DNA of 64,000 nt from Coriobacteriia bacterium (GTDB lineage: Bacteria; Actinomycetota; Coriobacteriia; Coriobacteriales; QAMH01): positions 14,827-78,826 of the forward strand of contig QAMH01000010.1 of the NCBI GenBank assembly GCA_003149935.1, written 5' to 3'. Made by a program: the position numbers and the translations under genes. Within the stretch, counting starts at the first letter, position 1. Each line of letters begins with the position of its first letter. This document shows positions 19,891 through 62,138 of this stretch, piece by piece. The notes below the pieces were generated by a model, which was not told the origin of the DNA, searched no databases, and saw only the letters and a program-made list of their open reading frames with translations.

Positions 19891-19906
19891 TTCCCGGTCA
19901 TCGCAC

Positions 19907-20887: not shown

Positions 20888-20905
20888 GGACTGCTCCTTG
20901 TCGCA

Positions 20906-22213: not shown

Positions 22214-22245
22214 GAAGGTCCTTTTCCATCCTTTTCACCTACGGA

Positions 22246-22399
22246 GGTAGCTCTTTCTCAAACAATAGCGAAGCAGAAAACGCTTTTCGTGAGGTGCCCT
22301 TGCGAGGACTGTCTGAGCAGGCGCTTTTTGCCTGCGAGTTCCGCAGCAGCCGAACGAAAAGCGTTTTCGGTTGCGGAGCGTGTTTGAGAAAGAGCTACC
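22246..22399. repeat. 154-nt nested inverted-repeat element between DUF2064 stop and radical SAM start
   Basis: Outer arms 22246-22264 / 22381-22399 (19 bp perfect). Inner arms 22276-22290 / 22354-22368 (15 bp). Central hairpin 22317-22335 (GCAGGC-GCTTTTT-GCCTGC). Confidence 0.9.
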
Positions 22400-23318: not shown

Positions 23319-23323
23319 GGGTG

Positions 23324-25543: not shown

Positions 25544-25611
25544 AGCTCATGATTGTACTGCATGCACCGAACAAACACGGGGACTCTCCGGTTACAACAC
25601 GGAGACGGAGC

Positions 25612-25896
25612 GCCCCCCCCCTTGTCATTTCGAGCGGAGCGGACGGGGCCGCGCCCCCCTGTCATTTCGAGCGAGGCGAACGGGGCCGCGCCCCCCCCTG
25701 TCATTTCGAGCGGAGCGAACGAAGTGAGCGGAGTCGAGAAATCTCGGTCTTTCGCTTAATAGACAGCAGCGGTGGAGATTTCTCCACTCCGGCGCTACGC
25801 GCCTTCGGTCGAAATGACAAGAGACAAACCTTACGGCCCCTTCGGTCGGAATGACAAGGGGTAGGCCTTACGGCCCCTTCGGTCGGAATGACAAAA
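25612..25896. repeat. F1-family repeat array: three direct units then three inverted units (large imperfect palindrome)
   Basis: TGTCATTTCGAGCG starts at 25623, 25660 and 25699 (37/39-bp spacing). Inverse units end in TCGAAATGACA at 25818 and TCGGAATGACA at 25856 and 25893. Confidence 0.9.
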
Positions 25897-25898
25897 GG

Positions 25899-27053: not shown

Positions 27054-27171
27054 CTCGAGTCCTTCCTCGCAGCGTGTTTGTGCCCGATTATACGCCAATG
27101 TGCCAAGAGGCCTGACCCCCTGACACATTCACGCTTGCAAACGAGCAGGTAGCCGTCAACTTCCCCACCAC

Positions 27172-27251: not shown

Positions 27252-28343
27252 CTACTGGGCGCCAGTCATGGCCGGGTTGGGGCCAGAGGTCTGGTAAACC
27301 TCATCGGGACCGTCGGCAGGTGCCTCATCGGCAACCTCACCAGCAGGCGTAACCCACGTCCAGTACTCCTTGCCAGCCTCCCAGTAATCCATGAAGTCCT
27401 GGTGGCTCTGCGGCAGACGCGTGTAGTACTTGAGCTCTGCGGGGGTGACGCGACGCTGATAGCTCCAGATAATCATGAAGCGGAGCAGGCAGCCACCCAT
27501 GAGGGCGATGATCTGCGAAGCGTAGCCGCCCACGCTCGTGATGTTGAGCACGAACGGAATGACCAGACCGCAGCAAACCATGAGGCCCCAGAAGTAACCG
27601 GCCCACTCGCCACGGACCCAGCGCTCCGCATGGGACTTGGCGGTCTCGTTGGAAGCGCAGAACTGCAGCATCACGTACAGGAGCAGCACGACGAGCTCGA
27701 GTGCGATGAGAATCGCGTCGGCAACGTGCAGGATGTGACGCAGCTCCTCGGTGAGCAGCGCGGCAAGCGGCGTGGACAGGTTGACCTGCAGCCACTCGGC
27801 CGGGAAGGGCCACACGCCGATGCACATGGAGAGCAGGGCCGCACCCGTGGAGCAACCGGACACCATGAAGAGCACGGGCAGAACCGGCGTGTTCCAGAAC
27901 GGACGGGACTTCATGCTGGAGAGCAGAACGCCCGTGTAGATCGTGACGCAGAGGCCGAAGATGCCGGCGATGCCGAGCAGAACCTGAGCGCAGCCTTCAT
28001 ACGGAATGAAGGGCAGGAACGTGAACCAGGAGAGCTCCCAGAAGATGAAGAGCACGCCTGCGATCATCGAAATGGAGAGGAACACGGCACCCCACTTGAT
28101 GACCGAGGTCCTCGTCACGAAGGCACGGTAGAAAATCCACGGCTGACCGAGCTCGAACACGAGCAGGCCAGTGCCGATGCCCAGGATGAGGAACGCGATG
28201 AAGACGCCCCAGACCAGAGCACCACTGGTAAGAGCAGACGGCGCGATGAGCAATCCGACAACGGCGGCGGTCGCCATCATGCCGCCACCAAGGCCGCCCA
28301 AGAAGAGGTAGAGGGCGATAGGCCAAATCCAGAACTGTTTCAC
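27252..28343 (-). CDS. NrfD/PsrC-family polytopic membrane anchor subunit
   Basis: 363 aa. WIWPIALYLFLGGLGGG and SRPFWNTPVLPVLF are NrfD-family signatures. 4-nt overlap with the upstream gene. Confidence 0.85.
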   Translation of the reverse strand: MKQFWIWPIALYLFLGGLGGGMMATAAVVGLLIAPSALTSGALVWGVFIAFLILGIGTGLLVFELGQPWIFYRAFVTRTSVIKWGAVFLSISMIAGVLFIFWELSWFTFLPFIPYEGCAQVLLGIAGIFGLCVTIYTGVLLSSMKSRPFWNTPVLPVLFMVSGCSTGAALLSMCIGVWPFPAEWLQVNLSTPLAALLTEELRHILHVADAILIALELVVLLLYVMLQFCASNETAKSHAERWVRGEWAGYFWGLMVCCGLVIPFVLNITSVGGYASQIIALMGGCLLRFMIIWSYQRRVTPAELKYYTRLPQSHQDFMDYWEAGKEYWTWVTPAGEVADEAPADGPDEVYQTSGPNPAMTGAQ

Positions 28344-28903
28344 TGTACCGTACCTCCTAAATCGGGGATGTAGTAGATCATGGGCTCGGTACCAACCTCG
28401 GGATAGACCTGCTCGGTGTAATACGAGTTCACGAGCTTCGAGACCTCGCTGTTGGGGTCATCGAGATCGCCGAACGTGCGGGCCTTCTGATGACAGGTCA
28501 TGACGCAGAAGGGCTGCTCGCCCTCGCGGACACGATCCTTGCAGAAGGTGCACTTGCGGATGTAGCCCTCGTGCTCGTTCATATCGCGAGCGCCGTAGGG
28601 GCACGCATTCGCGCAGACCTTGCATCCCATGCACTGGGAAGGCTCAACCCACACGATACCGTCATCGTCCTGGCGGGACGCGCCGGTCGGGCAGGCGGGC
28701 ACGCAAGCGGGCTTGTCGCAGTGCATGCAGATGAGCGGCGTGAAGGTCATGTGGACATGAGGCCACACGCCCTCTGCTCCGTTGGAAACAACGGGGTTGT
28801 AGATGATGTCAATGGGCAGCTCGTTCCAGGTGCGGCATGCGATGGTGCATGACGAGCAACCAATGCAACGACGCTGGTCCATAACCATTGCGTAACGGGT
28901 CAT
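28340..28903 (-). CDS. 4Fe-4S ferredoxin-type electron-transfer subunit (DmsB/PsrB-like)
   Basis: Start taken at MTRYAMVMDQRRC (ATG 28903) after AGAGGAGG. Four Cys groups: CIGCSSCTIAC, CMHCDKPACVPACP, CMGCKVCANACP, CTFC. Confidence 0.9.
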   Translation of the reverse strand: MTRYAMVMDQRRCIGCSSCTIACRTWNELPIDIIYNPVVSNGAEGVWPHVHMTFTPLICMHCDKPACVPACPTGASRQDDDGIVWVEPSQCMGCKVCANACPYGARDMNEHEGYIRKCTFCKDRVREGEQPFCVMTCHQKARTFGDLDDPNSEVSKLVNSYYTEQVYPEVGTEPMIYYIPDLGGTVQ

Positions 28904-28919
28904 TCCAGTCCTCCTCTCT

Positions 28920-33125: not shown

Positions 33126-33200
33126 TGGTGGGCGTTACTGGGATCGAACCAGTGGCCTTTTCCGTGTCAGGGAAACGCGCTCCCGCTGCGCCAAACGCCC
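33126..33200 (-). tRNA. tRNA-Val (anticodon GAC)
   Basis: Manual cloverleaf: GGGCGTT acceptor, anticodon arm TTTCC-CTGACAC-GGAAA, T arm ACTGG-TTCGATC-CCAGT, CCA encoded. Confidence 0.9.
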
Positions 33201-33302
33201 GTGGCAAAGTAGTCTAACAGAATGACGCTTCATCGCAAGCACGTATTTTTACAAGTTTCTCTTGCGCTTTGCCAAAAACTTCCCTAGAATACCGCTCTGC
33301 GC

Positions 33303-33378
33303 GCGGAAGTGGCTCAGTTGGTAGAGCACAACCTTGCCAAGGTTGGGGTCGCGGGTTCGAGCCCCGTCTTCCGCTCCA
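33303..33378 (+). tRNA. tRNA-Gly (anticodon GCC)
   Basis: GCGGAAG acceptor, anticodon arm CAACC-TTGCCAA-GGTTG, T arm GCGGG-TTCGAGC-CCCGT, CCA encoded. Confidence 0.9.
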
Positions 33379-33387
33379 TGCTAAGTC

Positions 33388-33415
33388 AAGAGCCGGCTTC
33401 CCAGTCGGCTCTTTT
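33388..33415 (+). terminator. Hairpin plus T-run between tRNA-Gly and tRNA-Cys
   Basis: AAGAGCCG (33388-33395) pairs with CGGCTCTT (33406-33413), followed by TT. Confidence 0.45.
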
Positions 33416-33433
33416 ACTCAAAGCACGTGGCAT

Positions 33434-33507
33434 GGCGACGTGGCCAAGCGGTAAGGCAGAGGCCTGCAAAGCCTTTATCACCGGTTCGATTCCGGTCGTC
33501 GCCTCCA
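33434..33507 (+). tRNA. tRNA-Cys (anticodon GCA)
   Basis: GGCGACG acceptor, anticodon arm GAGGC-CTGCAAA-GCCTT, T arm ACCGG-TTCGATT-CCGGT, CCA encoded. Confidence 0.9.
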
Positions 33508-33518
33508 GCAAACGAAAA

Positions 33519-33549
33519 GGGCCGGGTAACCCCGGCCCTTGTTTTTTTT
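33519..33549 (+). terminator. Rho-independent terminator after tRNA-Cys
   Basis: GGGCCGGG-TAAC-CCCGGCCC followed by TTGTTTTTTTT. Confidence 0.7.
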
Positions 33550-33624
33550 GGTGGCCCCACCAGGATTCGAACCTGGAACCTGTCGATTATGAGTCGATCG
33601 CGCTAACCATTGCGCCATGGGGCC
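33549..33624 (-). tRNA. tRNA with CAT anticodon (elongator Met or lysidine-modified Ile2)
   Basis: GGCCCCA acceptor, anticodon arm ATCGA-CTCATAA-TCGAC, T arm CCAGG-TTCGAAT-CCTGG, CCA encoded. The GGCCCC/GGGGCC acceptor stem resembles E. coli ileX (memory). Confidence 0.85.
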
Positions 33625-50770: not shown

Positions 50771-52195
50771 ATGGAACGCGAGAACGCATGGAAGAGCTAT
50801 AGCGACAAGGATCTCGATGAGCTCGAGAAACTCAGCAACGATTACATCGAGTTCATCTCGGAGAACAAGACCGAGCGCGAATGCGTGAGCGCCTCGATCG
50901 CTCTGGCCGAAAAGGCCGGGTACAAGTCGCTCGCCAAGGCCATCAAGAAGCAGCGCAAGCTCAAGGCCGGCGACAAGGTCTACGCCCAGACCCACGGCAA
51001 GGCCCTCATCTTGGCGGTGCTCGGTACCGACCCGCTCGAAGACGGCTTCAACATCTTGGGCGCCCACATCGACTCGCCTCGCCTCGACGCCAAGCAAAAC
51101 CCGCTCTACGAGAACACGGACATCGCGCTGCTCGACACGCACTATTACGGCGGCATCAAGAAGTACCAGTGGGTCACGCTCCCGCTGGCTATCCACGGCG
51201 TCATCGCCCTCAAGGCGGGCAAGTCCATCGAGGTCCGCGTCGGCGAAGACCCATCCGACCCCGTGTTCTGCATCTCGGACCTCCTCCCCCATCTGGGGCA
51301 AAAGCAGATGGAGAAGAATGCCAAGGAGGTCATCGATGCTGAAGACCTCGATGTGATCGTGGGCAGCAGGCCGCTTCTCTTCGAGAAGGACAAGCTCAAC
51401 GACGACTCTCCCGCATGGGAGAAGGTCGCCGAGAAGGAGCCGGTCAAGGCATCCGTGCTCAAGTACCTTGCCGAGTACTACGGCATCGAGGAGGAGGATT
51501 TCCTCTCCGCCGAGCTCGAAATCGTTCCAGCCGGTCGTGCCCGCGAGATGGGCTTCGACCGCTCCATGGTCATCGGTTACGGCCAGGACGACCGCGTCTG
51601 CGCCTACACGTCGCTCGTCGCCCAGCTCGCCATCGAAAATCCCAAGCGCACCGCCGTCACCGTGCTGGTCGACAAGGAGGAGATCGGTAGCGTGGGCGCT
51701 ACGGGCATGGAGTCACTGTTCTTCGAGAACACCATCGCCGAGATCATGGAGCTCGCCGGCGAAGGCGGCCAGCTCAAGCTACGCCGCGCGCTCGGTGCGT
51801 GCAAGATGCTGTCCTCCGACGTCTCCGCCGCACTCGACCCCTGCTACGCGAGCGTCTTCGAGCCCAAGAACGCCGCCTACATGGGTCGCGGCCTCGTCTT
51901 CAACAAGTACACGGGCGCACGCGGCAAGAGCGGCAGCAACGACACGTCGGCGGAGTTCGTCGCCGAGGTGCGCCGCGTCATGGACGGTGCGGGCGTCGCG
52001 TTTCAGACCGCCGAGCTCGGTCGCGTCGACATCGGCGGTGGCGGTACGATCGCCTACATCCCGGCCAAGTACGACATGGACGTCATCGACAGTGGCGTGG
52101 CCGTGCTCTCGATGCACGCACCCTGGGAGATCACGAGCAAGGCCGACATCTACGAGGCCCGCAAGGGTTACGAGGCGTTCCTGAAGAACGCATAG
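50771..52195 (+). CDS. M18-family aminopeptidase
   Basis: ATG 50771 follows GGAGGG. GAHIDSPRLD and DKEEIGSVGATG metal-ligand blocks. Confidence 0.85.
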   Translation: MERENAWKSYSDKDLDELEKLSNDYIEFISENKTERECVSASIALAEKAGYKSLAKAIKKQRKLKAGDKVYAQTHGKALILAVLGTDPLEDGFNILGAHIDSPRLDAKQNPLYENTDIALLDTHYYGGIKKYQWVTLPLAIHGVIALKAGKSIEVRVGEDPSDPVFCISDLLPHLGQKQMEKNAKEVIDAEDLDVIVGSRPLLFEKDKLNDDSPAWEKVAEKEPVKASVLKYLAEYYGIEEEDFLSAELEIVPAGRAREMGFDRSMVIGYGQDDRVCAYTSLVAQLAIENPKRTAVTVLVDKEEIGSVGATGMESLFFENTIAEIMELAGEGGQLKLRRALGACKMLSSDVSAALDPCYASVFEPKNAAYMGRGLVFNKYTGARGKSGSNDTSAEFVAEVRRVMDGAGVAFQTAELGRVDIGGGGTIAYIPAKYDMDVIDSGVAVLSMHAPWEITSKADIYEARKGYEAFLKNA

Positions 52196-52200
52196 GTGAC
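52081..52200. repeat. Left 120-bp direct repeat (aminopeptidase 3' end; putative attL)
   Basis: 115/120 identical to 61141-61260 by manual alignment. Confidence 0.95.
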
Positions 52201-52217
52201 ATTTAGCTGATAGCCTT

Positions 52218-52250
52218 AAACGGGCGGTCGCACTTTGCGGCCGCCCGTTT
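52218..52250 (+). terminator. 14-bp-stem hairpin after the intact aminopeptidase gene
   Basis: AAACGGGCGGTCGC-ACTTT-GCGGCCGCCCGTTT (one G-U pair). Confidence 0.5.
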
Positions 52251-52521
52251 CGATTGACCAACGTCACTTCATTCCATTGGGATGCATGAAACTGACGATT
52301 ATGTGAGACCGCGGCAAGACCCGTGTAAGAAAATTTCGATTATGTGTGACTAATCGCAAAGCAACTTTCACACAATCGAGAAAACCCTACAATCACGGCT
52401 GGCCAACTTCACAAAATCGTAAATTTCCCGCACCCCCGTACCGCCGGCTACACATAATCGAAATTTCTTTGCATGCGAGCCCTATCACATGCGCACCATC
52501 GCAAATCGAAAGCCGCGCTTC

Positions 52522-53790
52522 TTACTGCTTATCAAAACTGATAAGGCGGCGAGGTATCGCAAAGGCGATGATGCCAGCAGCTAGATACACGATGCCCGTA
52601 ATTGCGAACAGAGCATAGTTGTTGGAGCCTGCACCAAGGGCGATGAGAACCGGTATGAGCCACGCTCCAAGGTTCTGCAACGTCGCTTGCAGACCGCCTG
52701 CAACACCCATTATCTCCGGCTCGCGGATAATCTCCTTCAACATGCCCAGAAGCGCCTTGCCAAGCGGATTCACAACGCCATTGAAAAAACCAGTTATGCC
52801 CAACAGCAAAACGACAAGCTCGCCATTGGGCATGAACCATCCGAACACGCATATCAGGAAGATACATAGGCATCCGCTCAAAATGCACGCCTGCGTTCTC
52901 TTCATGCCAATCTTTTCGAGAACGAACGGAAACAGGATGCTCACAGCCATCATTCCAAAGCTGTTGAGCGTAACCATGTTATTTGCAAAGATCTCCGTTA
53001 CCCCTTTCGAGGCTACGACAGCAGCCGTCAGACTCGACGCGAAGGTCGTGCCAGCTCCCATGGGCAAGGCAATGACCAGTGAGGCGATCCAAACCCAGGG
53101 TCGCTTGAAAACAGCGAGATACTCGGAAATGCCAATATGGCTGCCAGCTGACTCTGCCGCCTTCTGCGGCGTCTTTCCCAGAAGCATGAAGCACAGGACA
53201 CCAACTGTGGATACGACGCTCGTGGCGGTGAGGACGGCCATCGTCGATTCAAAAAGGGCGGGAAACTGCACGCCCAGTGTAATGCCCACCGGCGCTCCTG
53301 CGACGTAAAACCCCATCGCCAAGGCAATGCGATTCTTGAACCATAAGCTTAGGTACTTGAGCGAATTCGCATTGAGCCCGGCAAGGCCAAATCCTATGAC
53401 GAAAGTCGCAAGATAATATAGCCAGAACTGGCCTGTGGGATAGAATGCGACACGCATCCACACACCAGCCAACGATATAAGAGCGCCAATCTTCATGGCA
53501 GTCGAGACTTGTATCTTGTCTCCAAGAACACCAAACGGAATGGCAAACACGGCTCCGGTGAGAAAAGAAGCGGACGCGAGCACGCCAACATCGGCTGGAT
53601 TGATTCCGTAATCGCTTACCAAACGCGCGCCAACGCCGCCGGTAACGCCCACTGCACACTCGAGCGCGACGTGGCACAAAAAGATTCCTGCAAGGGCAAT
53701 CCACTTCTTGGCCCCGTAAGGGTCAAGAATACGCTGATCCGCGAGGGGCTTTGACGCGCAAGCCCCTCGCTGCTCTTCATTTAACGACAT
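52522..53790 (-). CDS. MFS transporter
   Basis: Start taken at MSLNEEQRG (ATG 53790) after GGGAG. Multi-spanning. Confidence 0.8.
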   Translation of the reverse strand: MSLNEEQRGACASKPLADQRILDPYGAKKWIALAGIFLCHVALECAVGVTGGVGARLVSDYGINPADVGVLASASFLTGAVFAIPFGVLGDKIQVSTAMKIGALISLAGVWMRVAFYPTGQFWLYYLATFVIGFGLAGLNANSLKYLSLWFKNRIALAMGFYVAGAPVGITLGVQFPALFESTMAVLTATSVVSTVGVLCFMLLGKTPQKAAESAGSHIGISEYLAVFKRPWVWIASLVIALPMGAGTTFASSLTAAVVASKGVTEIFANNMVTLNSFGMMAVSILFPFVLEKIGMKRTQACILSGCLCIFLICVFGWFMPNGELVVLLLGITGFFNGVVNPLGKALLGMLKEIIREPEIMGVAGGLQATLQNLGAWLIPVLIALGAGSNNYALFAITGIVYLAAGIIAFAIPRRLISFDKQ

Positions 53791-53926
53791 GGTCCATCTC
53801 CCTGCACTACCAGCTGTTGATGCGTTTATGAAACACATCGGCTGAAATAAGCGAATAATCCCTCATAGTGCATTTCTCCAAATCTCTCCTGGTCACCCAC
53901 AAGACGAAAGACCAGGTCGTCTTTTG

Positions 53927-54085
53927 CTATTCACCGGAGGGAGGCTTGGGAATGAAGATGTCGCGTTTTTTCGCATCATTGGCGACATGATTGTCTGCCA
54001 TGCCCATGCGCTCGTAGGAGGTAAGCTCCCTCTCCTCCTGAGCCTCCTCGACACGCTTTTCGTCAGCTGCACTTTCATCTGCCAT
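53927..54085 (-). CDS. Small acidic hypothetical protein, 52 aa (below track cutoff)
   Basis: MADESAADEKRVEEAQEERELTSYERMGMADNHVANDAKKRDIFIPKPPSGE. AGGAG lies 9 nt upstream. Preferred over the overlapping R-rich 61-aa track ORF. Confidence 0.35.
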   Translation of the reverse strand: MADESAADEKRVEEAQEERELTSYERMGMADNHVANDAKKRDIFIPKPPSGE

Positions 54086-54254
54086 GATGGTCTCTCCTTT
54101 TCTTTAGATCGTCAGCAATATCGCAAGACCTGGAACTCACCTAACGATGCGTTCCGTAGTCGCAAGTTGCCAACATGAACGAATGGGGGGGGTGCCCAGC
54201 CGGTTGGGGGCAAAACTCAGGGAAATAGCCGGCTGGGCAAACGGATGGACGGTA

Positions 54255-55511
54255 CTACTTGCCTTCCAGGTCCGGACGCACCGGAAGCACCTTCTTCTTG
54301 ACGTAGAGAGTGAGCATAACCGTAAGCACGAGGCTGACGATTGCAAGCCCGACGATGAGCGGCAGGCACGCGGCCCACACACCACCAGCGCCATCGATGA
54401 GGGCACTGGGCAGCGTCACTCCGAGAGCGCCACCGATGTTAGCGCCAATCATCATGATGCCCATAGCCATCGAGAGCGTCTTGGGATTCTTCAGGATATC
54501 GGGCACCCAAGCAAACGCCACCGGCATGTTGATCGTGGAAACGAACGAGTACCAGATGATGAAGATTGCCATGATGGCAGCCGGGACACTGAATACGACG
54601 AGGAACGTCACGATACTCACGGCGCATATCGCCAACATCAGCCAACCGCGCTTGGTCGGCTTGACGATATTGATGATGATGCCAATGAGCACACTGCCGA
54701 CAATGCCGCCAAGAGATCCCAGAGAAACCAGATTATTCGCATCTGCAGGATCCAGACCAGCGCCCATGGGGCTCGACAGGTAAGCCGGATACAGGCCAGT
54801 GTAAACAGAACATCCAAACGCCAGACCACAGCAGATGAGGGTGAGCAGCCAAGGGCCTGGCTCCTTCAAACCATCGACGATCGAAGCCTTCTCCTCTGGC
54901 TCATCGGTGCCATCGGCATCGGCAGCTTGCTGACCCGGATTCTTAATGAACAAAATGAACAACACGAGGGCGATGATCTGGCAAACGCCAACAACAATCC
55001 ACTCGCCCTGCCAGCCGAATGCAGGGACGACGCCATTAGCGATCTGAGCGACCAGAAGCTGCGCGACAGGAACCCAAATAACCCAGATACCATTGGGCAA
55101 GCCTCGTTGTTCAGGAGCGAAGCTTGCCGAGATAATCGCGACGCTTACCATGGTCAGACAGCCATAGGAAACAGCGTCGAGCACGCGGCTTGCGATAAGC
55201 AATTCGATACTCGGAGCAACGGCGCCCAAAAGGCATTCCAGAATGCCGCAGACGATGACAATGATGCCAAATGTCTTGACGCCAACCTTCTGCATGATGC
55301 CACCGGCGGGAAGCGCGGTAACCAGACAACTGATACCGACAATGGACATCATCCAGCTGACCGTAGTCATGTCAGTCCCATAGAAGTTCATGATGTTGGG
55401 CATGTTGACAGGGACCTTGAACATGCCCATTGCAATAGTGATGCCCGCGAAAAAGACGATTGCAAACTGCAACCACGCCTTTGCCGGACTCATGGTTTGC
55501 TTGTTATCCAT
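54255..55511 (-). CDS. MFS transporter
   Basis: 418 aa. AAGGAG 6 nt upstream. Starts 9 nt after the stop of the ferredoxin-subunit gene. Confidence 0.85.
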   Translation of the reverse strand: MDNKQTMSPAKAWLQFAIVFFAGITIAMGMFKVPVNMPNIMNFYGTDMTTVSWMMSIVGISCLVTALPAGGIMQKVGVKTFGIIVIVCGILECLLGAVAPSIELLIASRVLDAVSYGCLTMVSVAIISASFAPEQRGLPNGIWVIWVPVAQLLVAQIANGVVPAFGWQGEWIVVGVCQIIALVLFILFIKNPGQQAADADGTDEPEEKASIVDGLKEPGPWLLTLICCGLAFGCSVYTGLYPAYLSSPMGAGLDPADANNLVSLGSLGGIVGSVLIGIIINIVKPTKRGWLMLAICAVSIVTFLVVFSVPAAIMAIFIIWYSFVSTINMPVAFAWVPDILKNPKTLSMAMGIMMIGANIGGALGVTLPSALIDGAGGVWAACLPLIVGLAIVSLVLTVMLTLYVKKKVLPVRPDLEGK

Positions 55512-55520
55512 CGTAGCTCC

Positions 55521-56327
55521 TTATTCCTTTTCCAGTGGAAAGTCACCTATGTTGAGGCTTTCTTGCAACGTGATGGGCTTGTTCTTCACACCTTTGAAAC
55601 CTGGAGCTTCAATGTTCAAAACATACTCACCAAGATTCAGGTGCTTGAACCAAAAGTCACCAAACCCATCCGTCTCGGTCTCGAGAGTCTCGCCACTGGG
55701 GCAGCGCAAAGTCACCTTCGCACCCTCAATGATGAGATCGGCTTCTGGATCCCATACTTCACCGGAAATAAAGAAGCCGAATGGGTTGAGATAATGCACG
55801 CGCGAACCCGAATCAGCGATATTGAACGCGCCGGTATCTTGCGCAATCTCGTCAGCAAACTCCTCTTCATCACCGAAACGTAGGGCACCCGTTGCGCAGG
55901 CATCAACACAGTGAGGGAGCTCTCCTTCATCGACAAGGTGAGCGCAACCGGTGCATTTTTGAGCAAGGCTCAAATCTTCGTTCCAATACACCGCACCATA
56001 CGAGCAAAGATGCACCAGGTCTTTCCTACCCACGGCCTTCTCAGGATCGATGATAACCAGGCCATCCTCGCGACGATACACGGCTTCGGGTGCAGCCTCG
56101 ATCAAAGGGCAATACTCACAGTGACGGCACAGCATCGGACGATACTCAATGCGAACTTTAGGGACTTGGCCATGAGTGCGCTCGTACATCTTGAGCCAGA
56201 ATTGTCCCGTATTTGGCTCTGGCTTCGAGTAGGGCGGCCATGCATTGCCAACGTTCTCATCCTTGCATGCAAGCTGACAGGCGTAACAGCCGTTGCACTT
56301 GTTAAGATCAACGACGAAAGTCTTCAT
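55521..56327 (-). CDS. 4Fe-4S subunit with C-terminal beta-sandwich tail, pyrogallol transhydroxylase small-subunit (BthL)-like
   Basis: 268 aa. CNGCYACQLACKDEN, CRHCEYCP, REDGLVIIDPEKAVGRKDLVHLCSYGAVYWNEDLSLAQKCTGCAHLVDE. Tail GAKVTLRCPSGETLETETDGFGDFWFKHLNLGEYVLNI. Confidence 0.8.
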   Translation of the reverse strand: MKTFVVDLNKCNGCYACQLACKDENVGNAWPPYSKPEPNTGQFWLKMYERTHGQVPKVRIEYRPMLCRHCEYCPLIEAAPEAVYRREDGLVIIDPEKAVGRKDLVHLCSYGAVYWNEDLSLAQKCTGCAHLVDEGELPHCVDACATGALRFGDEEEFADEIAQDTGAFNIADSGSRVHYLNPFGFFISGEVWDPEADLIIEGAKVTLRCPSGETLETETDGFGDFWFKHLNLGEYVLNIEAPGFKGVKNKPITLQESLNIGDFPLEKE

Positions 56328-56329
56328 CC

Positions 56330-58915
56330 TTATGCCTCCTCTTTAATCCAGCTGGTGATGTCAACGCCCTCGGCAGGGTCATAAGGACGATTGAACGCCT
56401 CGGGGTATTCCTCTGCGAGTCTGAAAACGTCGACTTTCTCGATACCAACGAGGAAGCCACTGGTGACTTCACCCGCAGCGTTCTTGGATGTAATCTTCGA
56501 AGGAGCGATAAGATTATTGGCACCTCCACGATCGGAAACACCTGGCTCGATGGGATCGAGACGAGCGCCATGATCCTGATAAACGGTATTGGTGCGAATG
56601 CGCTCGGTCACAATAGCACCGCCCAAGACCCAACCGCGCTGGTTGTAAATCTTCACGATGTCGCCACTGATGATTCCAAGGGGAGCCGCATCTTTCGGAT
56701 TGATCCAGACGGGCTCGTACATGTAGCCATCAGGTCCCTTTACCTTGCAGGTCGGGATTTCACGGATCCAAGGAATATCATCCATGTTCGCATGAACGCG
56801 CCAACGAGGATGATTCGACACCATCAAGAAGGGATACTCTTGCGCGCGGTCGCACAGGAGGCTCTCCTGATGGCGGGTGCCATACTGGATGGAATGCGGA
56901 ACCGGCCTGCGCTCCTTGTCATCAGGGAAGTGCTCCGCGAGACCCGTTGCGTAGAATTCGATTTTGCCTGTTGGAGTCTGCAGAGGAAACGCCTCGGGGT
57001 CATTGCAGAAATTCTCCCAACCGCGGGGCAGGTCTTCCCAGTCCTCCATCGTGGGGGCAACGTAATAGCCCTTCTCCAAGAACTCATCGAACGTCATCTT
57101 GTCGGGAGCGCCTTGCTGAGCGCAATCAAAGCCAACCTTGACCCACTCCCTGACGTCCTTGCCCTCGGTGTACTCCTCGTAGAGGCCGAGCTTCTTGGCA
57201 ACTTCGCCAACGGCTTCATAGTCACTCATCGATTCTCCGAGCGACTCAACTGCCTGCGCCTCATAGAAGATGCTGCCAAACTGGCCGCCACCATTATCCT
57301 GTCCGACATCCTCTTCCTCGAACTTGGTGTTAATGGGAAGCAGGATATCCGCGAAGAGGCAGTCGTTCTCCATCCAGGGGTGTTGAGCAACGACGCATTC
57401 GATTCTCTCATCGCGAAGCGCGTCCTCCATGGTGTTGCCACCGTTCCAGCATGTCGTCCAACACGGAGTGTCCGTCCAAATCATGTGAATCGGCTCAGCT
57501 CCCGGAATGGGGTACTGATACTGCTGGAACTGGTTTTCACGTGGCCAGGAGCACACGGTGTAGCCCATCCAAGTCAAGGGATTCTCGGCCGTATAATCGC
57601 CAAGGAGCGCCTTGGCAACCAGAGTCTTGGGAATGGAAGACTTGGTTTCCTGGAAGTCCCAGCCATGGTAGGCCGCACCAACAATCATGTTGCTCGAATA
57701 GCAGGGAGCCGGTTGCTGAGACGGCAGGCCGTACATGTACCACTCGATGAACTTGACAATGTTACGACCGGGCTTGCCAAGACCCATCATGGTCATGAGC
57801 GCGGCTTCGAAACGCGCAGGCTCATGAGAGTAGGTGGAGCGAATAAACGATCCGCCATTGCCATGGCCGATGCTCGTGGCCCGCTTTGCCCATTGATGGG
57901 CAAGCGCTTTGATTTGGCGGGAGGGAACACCGCAGATAGGAGAAGCCCATTCAGGCGTCTTGGGCTGCCCATCTTCCTTGCCGAGAATATAGTACTCGAA
58001 CCAATCATAGCCCACGGAATGCGTATCGATATACTCCTGGTCAACGAGACCCTCCGTCATCCAGACATAGGCAACAGCCGCCTGCAACGCAGAGTCCGTA
58101 TTGGGAAGAACAGGAATCCATTTGTCAGCATGCACCGCTGCGCCGTAGTTGAGATCAGGGCAGATATAGACTTGCTGAACACCGATCTCGGTAAGCCAGA
58201 AGCAATAGGCGCTGGGAAGCTGCCCCTGCCAACCCCAGGTCGTCGTCTCCATATCGCAGCCCCACAGAAGCAGCATGTCGGAGTTCTCGGCGATGTCCAG
58301 AAGAAGGTTGCCGATCTCGAACTGACCCAACGGGTCTTCGCCCCACATGTGCTTTGCTCCCCAGTACCAACCTTCCCAGGAGTCTGGCTGGCGAGCCTGA
58401 TAGGTCCAATCGTCGCCGATAAGGTTCATGAGGCGTGTCGGGCATCCATGCGACGCGTGGATAACCTTCGTCTCGCCATGTCCATCGGCCTGTACAAACA
58501 CCGACGACAAACCGTAGGTGTCTTTGACGCGCATAACCTCATCGGCGACGATCTGAGTTGCCTCATCCCAGGAGATACGCTCGAACTTGCTTTTTCCTCG
58601 ATTCTGGGGATTCCTTTCTCCCTTGGGATCCCAATCAACGCGCTTCATTGGATAGAGGATGCGATTCTTCGAATACACACGATTCTTGTATGCGTATGCA
58701 TATGGCGGAAGCATGGTCTTGAGACCGGAATGAAACTCGCTTCCTCTTGCTTTGATGGTCCACGGCTTGAGATGCTCCACGGAGTACTCTTTGTCGTAGC
58801 GCAGCGGGCGTGTGCGAATAATTTTGTCATCCTGCACATCGACCTCGGCAACATTCGCACCGATGCCGAACGAGTTCAGACCCGTTGCCTTGATAACTGT
58901 TTTCTTGTCAGCCAC
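56330..58915 (-). CDS. bis-MGD molybdoenzyme, pyrogallol-phloroglucinol transhydroxylase large-subunit (AthL)-like
   Basis: 861 aa. No N-terminal Cys cluster and no signal peptide. Blocks YPMKRVDWDPKGERNPQNRG, ERISWDEA, DSWEGWYWGAKHMWG, GESMSDYEAVGEVAKKLG. Confidence 0.8.
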   Translation of the reverse strand: MADKKTVIKATGLNSFGIGANVAEVDVQDDKIIRTRPLRYDKEYSVEHLKPWTIKARGSEFHSGLKTMLPPYAYAYKNRVYSKNRILYPMKRVDWDPKGERNPQNRGKSKFERISWDEATQIVADEVMRVKDTYGLSSVFVQADGHGETKVIHASHGCPTRLMNLIGDDWTYQARQPDSWEGWYWGAKHMWGEDPLGQFEIGNLLLDIAENSDMLLLWGCDMETTTWGWQGQLPSAYCFWLTEIGVQQVYICPDLNYGAAVHADKWIPVLPNTDSALQAAVAYVWMTEGLVDQEYIDTHSVGYDWFEYYILGKEDGQPKTPEWASPICGVPSRQIKALAHQWAKRATSIGHGNGGSFIRSTYSHEPARFEAALMTMMGLGKPGRNIVKFIEWYMYGLPSQQPAPCYSSNMIVGAAYHGWDFQETKSSIPKTLVAKALLGDYTAENPLTWMGYTVCSWPRENQFQQYQYPIPGAEPIHMIWTDTPCWTTCWNGGNTMEDALRDERIECVVAQHPWMENDCLFADILLPINTKFEEEDVGQDNGGGQFGSIFYEAQAVESLGESMSDYEAVGEVAKKLGLYEEYTEGKDVREWVKVGFDCAQQGAPDKMTFDEFLEKGYYVAPTMEDWEDLPRGWENFCNDPEAFPLQTPTGKIEFYATGLAEHFPDDKERRPVPHSIQYGTRHQESLLCDRAQEYPFLMVSNHPRWRVHANMDDIPWIREIPTCKVKGPDGYMYEPVWINPKDAAPLGIISGDIVKIYNQRGWVLGGAIVTERIRTNTVYQDHGARLDPIEPGVSDRGGANNLIAPSKITSKNAAGEVTSGFLVGIEKVDVFRLAEEYPEAFNRPYDPAEGVDITSWIKEEA

Positions 58916-59056
58916 GAAATCCTACCTCCTTCAAAAAGACGCTCTCTCTTTTCTCAGAATTCTCGATACGTTTTGCGCGCGATGAACGTTGAGAATTCCC
59001 TCCGAACGTATTATTGGAAGGGGCTTGGCTGCTTGAACAGTCACTATGATTTCATA

Positions 59057-59077
59057 ATGCATATGTCAAAAATGCAT
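59057..59077. promoter_or_regulatory. Candidate LysR-type operator ATGCAT-N9-ATGCAT (contains TGCA-N11-TGCA)
   Basis: Lies in the divergent region between the Mo-enzyme operon (start 58915) and lysR (start 59177). Confidence 0.35.
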
Positions 59078-59176
59078 ACCTGCAGTTAGACGTGCATCAC
59101 GCTAAAAACGAGAACACGGCGTTGCATGTTGCAGAGGGATTTCAGGACTAGAATAGAATCGAGGGGAGGCACAGAT

Positions 59177-60052
59177 ATGCAAATTGAGTTCATTCGTGAG
59201 TTTCTCACTGTTGCGGATTGCAAAAGCATCTCTGAAGCAGCCCAGAATCTCTTCCTGACGCAGCCAGTTCTAAGCAGACATATCAAGGCGATCGAAACGG
59301 AACTTGGAACCGATTTGTTTGCCCGATCTTCAAGGGGACTCGAGCTCACCGATCTGGGCGAGGAAGTATATAACTCATTCACCAATATCTTGCGTTCATA
59401 TGACAGCCTTGTCGACCGAATAAGCGCCGTAAAGAAATTCAATACTCATTCGATTCATTTTGGCATACTGGCCATGACAGCCGATCGTTATGCCATTCCG
59501 TTGGCAAAACAATTCCGTGAAGAAAATCCTGATGTCAGGTTTACATTCATTACCCTCAAGCCCAATGACATCATCGATGGCCTGGTTGCAGGCAGACTCG
59601 ACGTAGGTTTCGTGGGAACCAACAAGTTCCAGGATAAGGGGCAGCTCACATATGTGAAAGTTGGAAAAGAGCATCTCAATCTCGCAGTACCCCTCACCAA
59701 CAAGACGGCAAAGATGGACTTCATAACCGCTGAAGATATCGGCGACAGGCCTCTCGTATGTTTAAAAATGAATGACACGACACGAGTGCTCAACAACGCG
59801 TTATTTAATGCCGGTTTTCAACCAAGAAAGATATTGTCTGTCGACGAGCTCGAAATTGTAGCCACAACAGTTCTTGAAAATAATGGGTATTTTGCAATAC
59901 CCGACTACATGCGTCCGCTTTTTAAAATGAACCCGTCGCTTCGCGTACTCAGAATTGAGCCCCCTCTACAATTCAATGCATACTTCGCATACAAGACCTC
60001 GACAGTCAACGCAACCACCAAACGCTTCATAGAGAGCGTCGAGAAACCCTGA
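59177..60052 (+). CDS. LysR-family transcriptional regulator
   Basis: ATG 59177 follows GGAGG by 8 nt. HTH SISEAAQNLFLTQPVLSRHIKAIE. Confidence 0.9.
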   Translation: MQIEFIREFLTVADCKSISEAAQNLFLTQPVLSRHIKAIETELGTDLFARSSRGLELTDLGEEVYNSFTNILRSYDSLVDRISAVKKFNTHSIHFGILAMTADRYAIPLAKQFREENPDVRFTFITLKPNDIIDGLVAGRLDVGFVGTNKFQDKGQLTYVKVGKEHLNLAVPLTNKTAKMDFITAEDIGDRPLVCLKMNDTTRVLNNALFNAGFQPRKILSVDELEIVATTVLENNGYFAIPDYMRPLFKMNPSLRVLRIEPPLQFNAYFAYKTSTVNATTKRFIESVEKP

Positions 60053-60065
60053 GCAGTTAGTATCC

Positions 60066-61019
60066 CTATTGCAAACCAAGCTCACGAAGCCTCTCGATAA
60101 CACGCTGCATCCCGTCCTCGACCTCAGGGATGCCCTCTCCTTGATTCAAAAGATATGCATGGTGCAATCCCTCACCCACAATGAACTCGACATCCCCACC
60201 TGAGCACGAAATAGCCCTGACGAATTCGCGGATACCTGGATAAAGCTCTTCAAGCGTGCCACATAGCACCAACATGGGAGCCAAACCCTTCTTTGGCCCA
60301 TAAAACGGATCGGGCGGAAAAGCGTCAGGAGCGTTTTCGGTTCCTTCCACGAGCAACCGCGCTATCTCTCTGCTCCCATACCAATCGAGCAGAGGATCAT
60401 CCACTTTATAGCCTTCGCGATCCGCAACAACTCCCATCAAGTCTACAAACGGGGAATATGGAATCAGAAGATCGGGCTGCGCGAGATCCCTCTCTGCGCA
60501 TATTTGCGAAATAGCAATAGCCAGCGCCCCTCCGGCGGAGTCCCCCATAAGGGCAATCCTTTTGTCCGGATACCTATTTCTAATCGTTTCGTATGCCTCA
60601 AGACATGAAGAAAGAATCTCCTTGATTGAAGCTGAAGGGAGCAGAGGGTACATGGGCAGTGATACACCACATCTTAGCTCTCGCACCAAACGAGCGGACA
60701 AAAAGTAGTGTGGGGGCACGGCCGGAAACACATATCCTCCGCCATGGATATAAATGACGTGGACATTGCTGACACCTCTCGAATCATCTGCCTCTTTTGG
60801 AAGCAAGGTCACGAGCTCTGCAGTGTCCGTAATCTGCGAAATTTCAATCCTTGCATCTCTTAAGACAGAGACAGGAATCTCAAGCATCTTTTTATCGGAC
60901 TGTTGGGCAATGCGGCTTCCGTCGATTATCTGAGCAAACAATTGCGGGTTGCGAAAGCCTTCAACCATATTTGCCGCACGCATCGCATCGATGCATTCTT
61001 GCGCTTGCCTGCTCAACAT
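60066..61019 (-). CDS. Alpha/beta hydrolase, hormone-sensitive-lipase (family IV) type esterase
   Basis: 317 aa. Oxyanion HGGGY, nucleophile elbow GDSAGG. Confidence 0.85.
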   Translation of the reverse strand: MLSRQAQECIDAMRAANMVEGFRNPQLFAQIIDGSRIAQQSDKKMLEIPVSVLRDARIEISQITDTAELVTLLPKEADDSRGVSNVHVIYIHGGGYVFPAVPPHYFLSARLVRELRCGVSLPMYPLLPSASIKEILSSCLEAYETIRNRYPDKRIALMGDSAGGALAIAISQICAERDLAQPDLLIPYSPFVDLMGVVADREGYKVDDPLLDWYGSREIARLLVEGTENAPDAFPPDPFYGPKKGLAPMLVLCGTLEELYPGIREFVRAISCSGGDVEFIVGEGLHHAYLLNQGEGIPEVEDGMQRVIERLRELGLQ

Positions 61020-61140
61020 AAAGCATGCCTCCTTCGGATAATGTATGCTCTTCTAGAATTAATTATTAGTGCGCGAGGCGCTGGTGCATAGGCGCTTTTT
61101 TTCATAGAGCCTATGTAATAACTGCATAGCTAGCATATAA

Positions 61141-61255
61141 CGTCATCGACAGTGGCGTGGCCGTGCTCTCAATGCACGCTCCCTGGGAGATCACGAGCAA
61201 GGCCGACATCTACGAGGCCCGCAAGGGCTACGAGGCGTTCCTCAAGAACGCGTAG
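61141..61255 (+). pseudogene. Orphan 3' fragment (last 37 codons plus stop) of the M18 aminopeptidase gene; right direct repeat extends to 61260
   Basis: Reads VIDSGVAVLSMHAPWEITSKADIYEARKGYEAFLKNA*, identical in protein to the end of the intact gene. There is no upstream coding continuity. Confidence 0.9.
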
Positions 61256-61269
61256 GTGACTGACACTCG

Positions 61270-61302
61270 AATGAGACAGTTGCTCTGAGCAACTGTCTCA
61301 TT
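61270..61302. repeat. Collapsed TGAGACA-family palindrome (16-bp arms), probable bidirectional terminator
   Basis: AATGAGACAGTTGCTC-T-GAGCAACTGTCTCATT. It equals the outer arms of the 19818-19890 element with the centre missing, and overlaps the PIN gene stop codon. Confidence 0.85.
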
Positions 61303-61762
61303 AGACATCCAGGAGTGCGGCCATCAGCTCCTTATCCTCATGATCGACCGTGAGGAGGAACTCCTTGGCCGTGACGCTCTTCACCTTGCTGCCCACAAAG
61401 GCGTCCTCATCACGTGTGATAATGAAATCAGCCCCGTTCAGCTCTGCGCACGCACGGACGAGCCCGTCTTCGAAGTCGGGCTCGTTGCTCCGAAGGGAGC
61501 GGTCGCATTCCTCTGCGGAAACGGGAGCAACCGCCACGAGGCCCAGAAGGTTCTCGAGCGCCTCGCGCGCAATCGCCTCGCTGTAAGCCCGACACAAGAT
61601 GTAGTAGGCGTCGTTGAAGGAAGTCGCTGCCGCAAATCCGTAATCTCCACTACCGTTGCACCACCTCAGCAACGCAAGCGCTTCGTCATGCTGAGGACGA
61701 TTGGGAATAACACTATCCAGGAGAATATTGGTGTCGAGCAAGATCCTATACATCGCGCTCAC
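61301..61762 (-). CDS. PIN-domain toxin (VapC-like)
   Basis: MYRILLDTNILLD... and the C-terminal ITRDEDAF acidic residues. The start may be ATG 61753. Confidence 0.8.
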   Translation of the reverse strand: MSAMYRILLDTNILLDSVIPNRPQHDEALALLRWCNGSGDYGFAAATSFNDAYYILCRAYSEAIAREALENLLGLVAVAPVSAEECDRSLRSNEPDFEDGLVRACAELNGADFIITRDEDAFVGSKVKSVTAKEFLLTVDHEDKELMAALLDV

Positions 61763-62039
61763 CCAGAAGGTCTTTCATCTGCGCATCTGACATACCTGCA
61801 AACGCCTCGGGCGCTGGCGGAAGCGTCTCCACGAACTCGACGAAGCGAGAGAACTGGGCGCTTGGAACCGGCTTGCTGGCAGGCGCGGTCAGAGCCTCGG
61901 GCAACTCCCCCGTCTGGGCGATCGAGAACCACGTGGCCTTGATCACATCGGCCACTGTAAGGCCCGATGCGCGTATGACGCGATCTGCGCGCTCCTTTAT
62001 GGCTTGGTCAATTCGGCCCGAGACAACAGCAGTTTGCAT
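61746..62039 (-). CDS. RelB/DinJ-type (RHH) antitoxin
   Basis: Start at MQTAVVSGRIDQAIKERADRVIRASGLTVADVIK (ATG 62039 after GGAGGG). Overlaps the PIN gene start. Confidence 0.65.
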   Translation of the reverse strand: MQTAVVSGRIDQAIKERADRVIRASGLTVADVIKATWFSIAQTGELPEALTAPASKPVPSAQFSRFVEFVETLPPAPEAFAGMSDAQMKDLLGERDV

Positions 62040-62056
62040 AACGCCCTCCATCTTGA

Positions 62057-62071
62057 TGTATACAGTATACA
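62057..62071. promoter_or_regulatory. 15-bp palindrome TGTATAC-A-GTATACA upstream of antitoxin gene (candidate autoregulatory operator)
   Basis: 7-bp perfect inverted repeat, 18 nt upstream of the antitoxin ATG. Confidence 0.35.
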
Positions 62072-62138
62072 CCGACAAGGAGGAGCTATTCCAACGAGGC
62101 GTCATCAAAAACGCATAGGAGTTATTGTTTGAACCTGT

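Follow-up and report, generated by a model that had tools for sequence, protein, structure and literature searches.

A predicted mobile and regulated member of an AthL-like molybdoenzyme subfamily with a remodelled active site in a gut Coriobacteriia genome

As far as we know, characterisation within the large RhL/PgtL family of molybdoenzymes has been limited to three enzymes, a transhydroxylase and two hydroxylases. The known members act on phenols, in one case on a carboxylated phenol (3,5-dihydroxybenzoate). The family has been recognised within the dimethyl sulfoxide (DMSO) reductase superfamily (PMC10100899). Here we analysed a stretch of 64,000 nucleotides from a Coriobacteriia bacterium (GenBank assembly GCA_003149935.1, contig QAMH01000010.1, positions 14,827 to 78,826), in the following called the window, that codes for a pair of molybdoenzyme subunits. 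An initial annotation, made from the letters alone, had read this pair as similar to the pyrogallol-phloroglucinol transhydroxylase AthL/BthL of Pelobacter acidigallici. According to our analysis the locus is a mobile, regulated member of an AthL-like subfamily with a predicted remodelled active site. The two subunits are encoded as follows:

56330-58915, reverse strand: large subunit with the molybdopterin site, 861 amino acids (aa); AhtL-like_1st, Molybdopterin and Molydop_binding (Pfam)
55521-56327, reverse strand: small iron-sulphur (Fe-S) subunit, 268 aa; Fer4_11 and CarboxypepD_reg (Pfam)

The best match of the large subunit in the PDB is the large subunit of pyrogallol hydroxytransferase (4v4c_A; E 4.5e-128, 432 bits, residues 24-829), followed by MtsZ (7l5i, 1e-67), an S-oxide reductase deposited as trimethylamine-N-oxide (TMAO) reductase; acetylene hydratase scored E 1.5e-12 in the same search. 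The Pfam models found were PF21423, PF00384 and PF01568. An AlphaFold model calculated with 21 homologues reached a mean predicted local distance difference test (pLDDT) value of 75.6 and a predicted template modelling score (pTM) of 0.80, and a Foldseek search with this model again returned 4v4c_A at the top (TM 0.82), with DMSO/TMAO reductases at 0.74-0.76. As the pLDDT is below 50 for residues 177-199 and 353-361, which surround the active site, the model was not used for pocket geometry. The family motif PDSWEGWxWG is kept, and the blocks that the initial annotation had quoted as common to both enzymes (YPMKR..DP.GERNPQ.RG, ERISWDEA, DSWEGW.WG..HMWG and GESMSDYE) could all be aligned between the window protein and AthL. 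By sequence and fold, the large subunit is a member of the RhL/PgtL (AthL-like) family of Ser-ligated molybdenum-bis-molybdopterin guanine dinucleotide (Mo-bis-MGD) enzymes.

The open reading frame (ORF) of 861 aa begins at the first start codon after a stop and cannot grow upstream, and a GGAGG ribosome-binding site is located 8 nt upstream of the start. The first Cys is residue 158, an N-terminal FS0 Cys cluster being absent, and inspection of the N-terminus revealed neither a twin-arginine motif nor a signal peptide, in line with what the initial annotation had stated about the missing Fe-S motif and signal. Since the ORF is not extendable and has no early Cys and no twin-arginine motif, the enzyme is cytoplasmic and lacks the FS0 cluster.

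The small subunit matches best to the small subunit of the same crystal structure (4v4c_B, E 4.3e-49; runner-up 1e-25) and is 37% identical to BthL. Twelve Cys residues are arranged in the BthL pattern and give three [4Fe-4S] sites, as judged from the Cys columns of 65 homologues, and the CxxCxxC of a fourth cluster is missing exactly where BthL misses it (DPEKAVGRKDLVHLC). In the second Cys group the third Cys has moved (CxxCxxC, Cys73), a variant that occurs in three further loci; other small subunits of the window clade have the full form with 16 Cys and four clusters. The C-terminus is a β-sandwich of the CarboxypepD_reg type (Pfam). The motif REDG.V.IDPEKA...AQKCT.CAHL.D., which had been taken to resemble the transhydroxylase small subunit, is indeed aligned in BthL, and the ferredoxin Cys groups and the β-sandwich-like tail correspond to the Pfam matches Fer4_11 and CarboxypepD_reg. 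In a neighbourhood comparison of 83 related loci (homologue threshold E≤1e-10, 50% coverage) a gene for a BthL-type subunit came next after the large subunit in 65, many of the others being cut contigs.

For comparison with the transhydroxylase, AthL 17-868 and BthL 6-268 were rebuilt from PDB alignments, with block lengths fitting the PDB numbering. The large subunit and AthL are 35% identical (BLASTP). A homologue search among 5.8 billion proteins was carried out once with the window protein and once with AthL, and the best 120 matches of each were compared. Those of the window protein are 57-100% identical to it and include close relatives in Raoultibacter timonensis (79%) and Gordonibacter (78%) as well as proteins of Desulfitobacterium, Dehalobacter, Sporomusa, Candidatus Formimonas, Syntrophomonas, Moorellaceae and Coriobacteriia metagenome-assembled genomes (MAGs) at 58-66%. 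All of the best 120 matches of AthL are at least 61% identical to AthL, and the two lists have no sequence in common. Likewise, in a neighbour-joining tree of 69 representatives the sequences with the AthL signature form one clade and the window protein belongs to another. Thus, of the proposed alignment with AthL, the good identity in the quoted blocks holds, but the window protein falls into a different clade with an overall identity of 35%.

An alignment of 241 sequences, comprising the AthL clade (120 sequences) and the window clade, has 95 columns that are at least 95% conserved in both clades, among them His144, Asp174, Ser175, Trp176, Glu177 and Arg359 (AthL numbering). The Ser ligand of Mo is present: Ser179 of the window protein occupies the position of AthL Ser175, a Ser that does not vary among 239 sequences. 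Asp174 and His144 of AthL correspond to Asp178 and His146. Another 41 columns are fixed differently in the two clades. From their crystal structure, Messerschmidt et al. are said to have proposed in 2004 that His144, Asp174 and Tyr404 are catalytic and that Tyr404 positions the tetrahydroxybenzene cosubstrate. The expected residue was present in the PDB sequence at all ten AthL active-site positions considered, and nine of them are found in at least 117 of the 120 sequences of the AthL clade, Trp354 occurring in 108. We defined AthL-clade residues as invariant or near-invariant (at least 117/120) in sequences down to 61% identity; this strict conservation indicates, independently of the proposal from the structure, that they are functionally constrained in that clade. 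The following of these residues and loops are replaced or deleted:

AthL-clade His145: Gly in the window protein
AthL-clade Trp147: Thr in the window protein
AthL-clade Tyr152: Ala in the window protein (Ala/Gly across the window clade)
AthL-clade Arg153: Ser in the window protein (Pro/Ser/Ala/Cys across the window clade)
AthL-clade Phe468: Val in the window protein (aliphatic across the window clade)
AthL loop 404-415 with Tyr404 (12 residues): deleted in 119/119 window-clade sequences
AthL loop 560-568 with Tyr560: deleted in 119/119 window-clade sequences

The window clade has invariant residues of its own on the active-site loop, namely Lys150, His153 and Arg175, a conserved aromatic segment, IEWY (390-393; Glu391-Trp392), where the Tyr404 loop would be, and a C-terminal extension (830-848). 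The window protein retains every residue that is invariant in its clade. Judged from these alignments, the window enzyme is not an orthologue of the pyrogallol-phloroglucinol transhydroxylase and represents a separate subfamily, in which the putative second-substrate (tetrahydroxybenzene) site of the transhydroxylase is lost. The identification as a transhydroxylase could consequently not be upheld, with identities of 35% and 37% for the two subunits, non-overlapping lists of the best 120 matches, and AthL-clade residues that are replaced or deleted.

The pair is part of a group of six intact ORFs between 52.5 and 61.0 kb of the window, which agree in identity and place with those listed in the initial annotation (large and small subunit, two transporters of the major facilitator superfamily (MFS), a divergent LysR regulator and an esterase of the hormone-sensitive lipase (HSL) type). 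In addition to the two subunits the group contains:

54255-55511, reverse strand: first MFS transporter, 418 aa; Pfam MFS_1 6e-41
53927-54085, reverse strand: 52-aa ORF between the two MFS genes, called as a gene in L001/L008; gene status uncertain
52522-53790, reverse strand: second MFS transporter, 422 aa according to the gene call on an identical metagenome scaffold (L001/L008); Pfam MFS_1 2e-25
58916-59176: divergent control region between the enzyme operon and LysR, a spacer of 261 bp
59177-60052, forward strand: LysR regulator, 291 aa as called, the ORF beginning at 59126; Pfam HTH_1 and LysR_substrate
60066-61019, reverse strand: HSL-type carboxylesterase, cytoplasmic; Pfam Abhydrolase_3 3e-26, HGGG and GDSAG motifs

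The ORF of the second MFS transporter reaches its first ATG at 53838, which would give 438 aa. A Pfam search with the 52-aa ORF yielded no match, and none of the six proteins reaches the cut-off of any NCBIfam model. The stop codon of the large subunit gene lies 2 nt ahead of the small subunit start, and the first MFS gene begins 9 nt after the end of the small subunit gene. Because of these short gaps the three genes look like one operon, and the 9-nt gap suggests that the small subunit and the first MFS transporter are probably co-translated. LysR is transcribed divergently from the enzyme operon. The esterase gene is convergent with LysR and hence constitutes a separate transcription unit.

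In the neighbourhood comparison, the LysR regulator, both subunits and the first MFS transporter recur together in Raoultibacter, in Gordonibacter and in two Eggerthellaceae/Coriobacteriales MAGs (83% orthologues). Orthologues of the first MFS transporter with 52-70% identity are present in the loci L003, L004, L016 and L017, and in the same four loci a LysR protein with 35-40% identity adjoins the orthologous pair. As the combination of LysR, large subunit, small subunit and first MFS transporter recurs at unrelated chromosomal sites, it constitutes the mobile core. The second MFS transporter has no orthologue in the orthologous modules, the second MFS transporters of Raoultibacter and Gordonibacter included, and gave a single weak match among the 83 loci (25% identity, L083); an esterase was found beside related enzyme pairs in none of the 83. 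The esterase and the second MFS transporter are lineage-specific passengers of the locus; they could act on the same compound or on another one. The idea of a single packaged module is thus confirmed for the four proteins that recur with 78-83% orthologues, but not for the esterase and the second MFS transporter. The closest PDB relatives of the esterase are the metagenomic esterases EstD11 and E40; a role as tannase or lactonase partner was considered and rejected, as the protein belongs to the generic HSL family, has no specific relative and is kept beside no homologue. Weak NCBIfam matches of the first MFS transporter, far below the cut-off, are to D-galactonate and lactate transporters, MhpT and PcaK (anion:cation symporter type).

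The control region contains a palindrome, ATGCAT-N9-ATGCAT, at 59057-59077, which was rejected as a LysR operator since it is not conserved in the orthologous intergenic regions. A scan of the same region for sigma-70 promoters revealed no strong consensus and nothing better than in shuffled sequence. The best NCBIfam model for the LysR protein is 'selenium metabolism-associated LysR' with 129 bits (cut-off 250); the link to the selenium-type homologues in the window is probably a coincidence.

Beyond the orthologous modules, the following proteins recur as neighbours in the wider clade:

MFS transporters: 19 loci
Membrane-spanning LuxR-type regulators, of the kind controlling catechol dehydroxylases in Eggerthellaceae: 16 loci
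DASS anion transporters: 14 loci
Small ferredoxins: 12 loci
LysR regulators: 11 loci
CCG/HdrD-like Fe-S proteins: 9 loci

DUF169-Fer4 proteins also recur. The pair of Desulfitobacterium hafniense (L006), for example, is flanked by two DASS transporters, two CCG proteins, a DUF169-ferredoxin fusion and a sigma-54 activator. In a genome resembling P. acidigallici (L096), genes for a gallate decarboxylase of the UbiD/LpdD/flavoprotein type are located 8-10 kb from AthL/BthL, and no homologues of these three were found in the 64-kb window. The suggested connection to gallate esters or pyrogallol-type substrates thus finds no support in the locus: nothing ties it to them, and a gallate decarboxylase is not encoded in the window.

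All six genes are located in a region between 52 and 61 kb that differs from its surroundings in base composition (GC 0.48-0.55, compared with about 0.61 in the flanks) and is bordered by a direct repeat:

50771-52195, forward strand: M18 aminopeptidase gene, ending within the left repeat copy
52080-52200: left direct-repeat copy, 121 nt, where the M18 aminopeptidase gene genuinely ends, stop codon included; left junction
52201-61139: island body of low GC between the repeat copies
61140-61260: right direct-repeat copy, an orphan 3' fragment of the M18 peptidase gene

The two copies are 96% identical, lie 9,060 bp apart and comprise the final 116 nt of the peptidase gene together with the stop codon. 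They were delimited by a repeat search and by BLASTN of the related contigs L009 and L011 against the window. Beyond the right copy follow the native terminator hairpin and the genes of a PIN/RelB toxin-antitoxin system. Five contigs of a sister lineage (L009, L010, L012, L013 and L015), whose flanking DNA is 91-93% identical to the window, have an empty site, which we documented by a three-way alignment with L009: the M18 gene is followed by 35 bp and then by PIN-RelB-purL, with nothing in between. The term island used in the initial annotation is hence justified by the GC dip, the 121-nt direct repeat and the empty site in five related contigs. The ORF list revealed no integrase or transposase genes inside the island. 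Borders of this kind would be expected if a circular molecule had recombined into the 3' end of the peptidase gene; as the island has no integrase or transposase, this mechanism is one that we only infer. The operon of both subunits and the first MFS transporter is predicted to have been acquired horizontally.

Several further observations concern the surroundings of the island. Just inside its left end, between the direct repeat and the stop codon of the second MFS gene, an inverted repeat (52324-52347/52450-52473) with 24-nt arms, 88% complementary and 102 nt apart, may represent a terminator or what is left of a small mobile element. The genes for the PIN-domain toxin and the RelB-type antitoxin (61301-62108) adjoin the right junction and are present in island-bearing and island-free relatives. 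The five contigs with the empty site carry a further insert (their positions 3360-8971) between the genes for a 282-aa and a 211-aa protein (about 49.7-50.1 kb of the window), which is absent from the window and codes for an AAA_14/DUF4143 ATPase, a 536-aa protein, an AMP-binding enzyme and a helix-turn-helix protein. The surroundings of the M18 peptidase gene appear to be a hot spot of gene gain and loss. Two other contigs of the sister lineage (L011 and L014, positions 1-4920) harbour a different AthL-like module between leuS and rimP, where the window has no insert. This module consists of a LysR protein of 314 aa, a large subunit of 900 aa (57% identical to that of the window) and a small subunit of 267 aa. 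Related genomes hold alternative paralogues at alternative sites in the same 20-kb neighbourhood.

The window is colinear with a 358-kb scaffold from a human gut metagenome. Its proteins are deposited under 'MAG: Coriobacteriia bacterium' (PWL77482.1, annotated just as 'dehydrogenase'), and identical proteins occur on many independent metagenome contigs (65 for the large subunit variant, 112 for the small subunit). A HMMER scan of 1.84 billion cluster representatives yielded 603 clusters (50% identity) at E≤1e-30, about 25 full-length 50%-identity clusters scoring above AthL against the window protein. Several sister clusters of the window clade start with twin-arginine signals (SRRDFLK), which are not found in the window's own subclade; by these signals, the sister clusters look like exported, respiratory-type enzymes. 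With one genome per GTDB species, at least 594 loci have the family motif. The 80 closest belong to Eggerthellaceae (Ellagibacter, Gordonibacter, Raoultibacter, Adlercreutzia), Peptococcaceae, Syntrophomonadaceae, Dehalococcoidia, Anaerolineales and Thermoleophilia, and several paralogues per genome are common in gut Eggerthellaceae, Desulfitobacterium and Dehalococcoidia. Looking up ten cluster representatives for named relatives returned archaeal or MAG proteins only. In the literature we found no characterisation of the window subfamily, only mentions in genome annotations and unrelated work on catechol dehydroxylases and enzymes of the xanthine oxidase type. Genome papers label the homologues of Desulfitobacterium and Dehalococcoidia as 'pyrogallol hydroxytransferase' by annotation and read them as aromatic catabolism. 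A survey of gut respiratory reductases chose its proteins by signal peptide and would leave out the window enzyme because the latter is cytoplasmic.

As to function, we tentatively favour a reading that we rate somewhat short of probable: the pair may be a cytoplasmic redox enzyme with a single substrate that catalyses the dehydroxylation or hydroxylation of an imported, probably anionic, phenolic compound. The conserved MFS transporter would bring in an organic, probably anionic, phenolic compound, which LysR would sense in the cytoplasm to induce the operon. The substrate would bind to Mo via a ring hydroxyl, like pyrogallol in the transhydroxylase, and the reaction would be either the reductive removal of a ring hydroxyl or a hydroxylation with a water-derived hydroxyl, a soluble carrier supplying or taking up the electrons by way of the small subunit. 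Import of an anionic phenolic is suggested by the weak family matches of the first MFS transporter, the DASS transporters beside relatives and the new basic residues on the active-site loop. Single-substrate redox chemistry is favoured over hydroxyl exchange because the enzyme has lost the cosubstrate loops, because it retains the Fe-S chain, and because relatives have redox neighbours or Tat signals. Several points weigh against this reading. For every member of the subfamily, substrate class and reaction direction are predictions. The lost transhydroxylase residues would still fit a transhydroxylase with another phenol pair, the IEWY segment lying at the position of Tyr404. As the transhydroxylase keeps its clusters without a known catalytic role, retention of the Fe-S sites is weak evidence for a redox reaction, and no gene for an electron-transfer partner was found in the island. 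Moreover, the model is unreliable at the active site (pLDDT <50), and RhL and DbhL are related to the window clade by family description only.

The strongest competitor for the same evidence, a redox-neutral transhydroxylase acting on another phenol pair, for example carboxylated or larger polyphenol units, at a remodelled second-substrate site, is in our view unlikely. The conserved catalytic core would suit it, Lys150, His153, Arg175 and Glu391-Trp392 could form a new pocket, and the island provides no electron-transfer partner gene; both loops that close the cosubstrate site of the transhydroxylase are, however, deleted and not substituted, and relatives are often encoded beside ferredoxin or CCG-type proteins or are Tat-exported like respiratory enzymes. 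A true pyrogallol-phloroglucinol transhydroxylase that feeds a phloroglucinol pathway encoded elsewhere in the genome is very unlikely. No relative with a solved structure and a known function is closer in sequence and fold than AthL/BthL, which is like the window enzyme in architecture, in the β subunit with three clusters and a β-sandwich, in being cytoplasmic and in the Ser/Asp/His core. Yet identity is limited to 35-37%, the window protein stands in a separate clade with about 25 clusters nearer to it than AthL, and Tyr404, Tyr560, Arg153, Tyr152, Trp147, His145 and Phe468 are all replaced or deleted. Unlike the locus resembling that of P. acidigallici, neither the island nor the 64-kb window contains a gene of a trihydroxybenzene pathway, and a redox-neutral isomerisation would bring no evident gain to asaccharolytic Coriobacteriia unless downstream genes exist.

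A more specific version of the redox reading, which we consider quite unlikely, is a cytoplasmic, ferredoxin-coupled reductive dehydroxylase that has no cosubstrate site and takes the central hydroxyl from pyrogallol-type acids. Candidates for such acids would be gallate and the trihydroxyphenyl-acetate and -valerate from the breakdown of myricetin and epigallocatechin, and in removing the central hydroxyl the enzyme would carry out only that half of the transhydroxylase reaction which reduces tetrahydroxybenzene to phloroglucinol. For the 'para-dehydroxylation of pyrogallol units' in the gut we know of no assigned enzyme. Likewise improbable is a Ser-ligated oxygen-atom-transfer reductase for an S- or N-oxide or another small anion, which would not be a phenol enzyme. 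BisC, TorA, DorA and MtsZ are the second-best relatives (bisC_fam 342 bits; PDB 7l5i 1e-67, TM 0.76), the Desulfitobacterium homologue is flanked by DASS transporters of the sulfate/dicarboxylate type, and many databases name homologues 'trimethylamine-N-oxide reductase'. These names are automatic, however, and the scores stay well below the cut-offs (342 compared with 1017 bits for bisC_fam, 285 compared with 909 for TorA); the known reductases are monomeric, have GDYS instead of PDSWEGW and no Fe-S partner, whereas the pairing with a BthL-type subunit is kept in 65 of 83 loci. That the island genes are decaying cargo without function can hardly be credited: the island has kept no mobility gene and neither the esterase nor the second MFS transporter is conserved elsewhere, but all six ORFs are intact, every clade-invariant residue is kept, operon spacing is tight with a strong ribosome-binding site, and identical proteins are found on many independent metagenome contigs (65 for the large subunit variant, 112 for the small subunit).

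Given that the subfamily keeps the catalytic core but not the second-substrate site of the transhydroxylase, the label 'pyrogallol hydroxytransferase' should not be passed on to it. The locus provides a candidate for a cytoplasmic, polyphenol-transforming gut enzyme that is mobile, varies between strains or lineages, and differs from the catechol dehydroxylases studied so far, which are periplasmic. Orthologues with 78-79% identity are present in cultured strains (Raoultibacter timonensis, Gordonibacter), which makes the question accessible to direct tests. If the reading as a dehydroxylase of pyrogallol units were true, this gut activity would gain an enzyme and a large radiation of AthL-like enzymes would be opened up, a radiation that surveys of gut reductases filtered by signal peptide would have missed.

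The window contains three different molybdopterin enzymes. One is a 739-aa protein (23324-25543, reverse strand) with acetylene hydratase (2e7z, E 2.5e-73) as its best PDB relative; acetylene hydratase is the nearest kin of the gut catechol dehydroxylases in a published phylogeny (PMC7028382). Its gene is part of a cluster on the reverse strand (18028-27128) together with genes for a CCG-domain Fe-S protein (25899-27128), a DUF2064 protein (22395-23318), a TrsS-like radical SAM protein (20906-22213; 333 bits, cut-off 490), a DUF169-ferredoxin fusion (19907-20887) and a protein of the metallo-β-lactamase (MBL) fold (18028-19320). The trio of CCG, DUF169-Fer4 and MBL proteins is also found beside the AthL-like pair of Desulfitobacterium (L006), and the CCG protein of the window matches 'diclust_near_Sec'. 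Another is a three-subunit respiratory molybdoenzyme of the PsrABC type (27252-31835, reverse strand), composed of a catalytic subunit of 971 aa, a Fer4_11 subunit and an NrfD anchor, the catalytic subunit having an Fe4S4 (FS0) domain and C-terminal OCRE-like repeats. Farther away lie a defence-like cluster on the forward strand (3238-9933) that encodes a TerB_N/TerB_C protein of 590 aa, a BrxC/BrxD-family ATPase (Pfam E 2.6e-174), a DEAD/ResIII helicase of 774 aa and an AAA_16 ATPase, four tRNA genes on both strands (33126-33624; Val-GAC, Gly-GCC, Cys-GCA and Met-CAT), and a fifth, Pro-GGG, at 16098-16174.

Among the known systems, the BisC/TorA/DorA/MtsZ reductases share with the window enzyme the Ser-ligated branch of the DMSO reductase superfamily, and differ from it in being monomeric, with a GDYS active-site motif and without a BthL-type partner. 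The catechol dehydroxylases of gut Coriobacteriia (Dadh, Hcdh, Cldh, Cadh, Eadh) have the Mo-bis-MGD cofactor and the bacterial class in common with it. They typically carry a Tat signal, are anchored in the membrane and are under the control of membrane LuxR-type regulators. The window enzyme, in contrast, is cytoplasmic, AthL-like and linked to LysR, has neither FS0 nor a twin-arginine motif, and a Pfam search of the island revealed no membrane anchor of the NrfD type. Catechol dehydroxylases take ring hydroxyls off dietary polyphenols and are encoded near MFS transporters and dedicated regulators (PMC7028382; bioRxiv 2025.01.17.632430), and they stand apart from the transhydroxylase, in a clade of their own that is closest to acetylene hydratase (PMC7028382). 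The enzymes of urolithin formation belong to the catechol dehydroxylase clade or to the xanthine oxidase family (bioRxiv 2025.01.17.632430). A urolithin/ellagic acid cluster was considered for the island and rejected, as such clusters use catechol dehydroxylases, a decarboxylase of the amidohydrolase type and LuxR regulators (bioRxiv 2025.01.17.632430).

AthL/BthL of P. acidigallici (PgtL, 4v4c) resembles the window enzyme in Mo-bis-MGD, in the Mo ligand (Ser175/Ser179), the adjacent Asp and the equivalent of His144, in the PDSWEGWxWG motif and the AthL-type N-terminal domain, in the absence of FS0 and of a signal peptide, and, in the small subunit, in three [4Fe-4S] sites, the lost motif of the fourth cluster and the C-terminal β-sandwich. 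The window enzyme differs in having no Tyr404 and Tyr560 loops, in five replaced pocket residues and in its C-terminal extension; its locus lacks the gallate decarboxylase neighbourhood, and its host is a member of the gut Coriobacteriia, not a trihydroxybenzene fermenter. RhLS of Azoarcus anaerobius and DbhLS of Thauera aromatica AR-1, with which we compared the window enzyme by description, belong to the same RhL/PgtL family (PMC10100899). Unlike the window enzyme, they are oxidative enzymes of nitrate-respiring Betaproteobacteria. Both combine a Ser-ligated MopB protein with an Fe-S small subunit, and each hydroxylates a single meta-dihydroxy aromatic substrate, in one case a carboxylate; this is the type of chemistry that we favour for the window enzyme.

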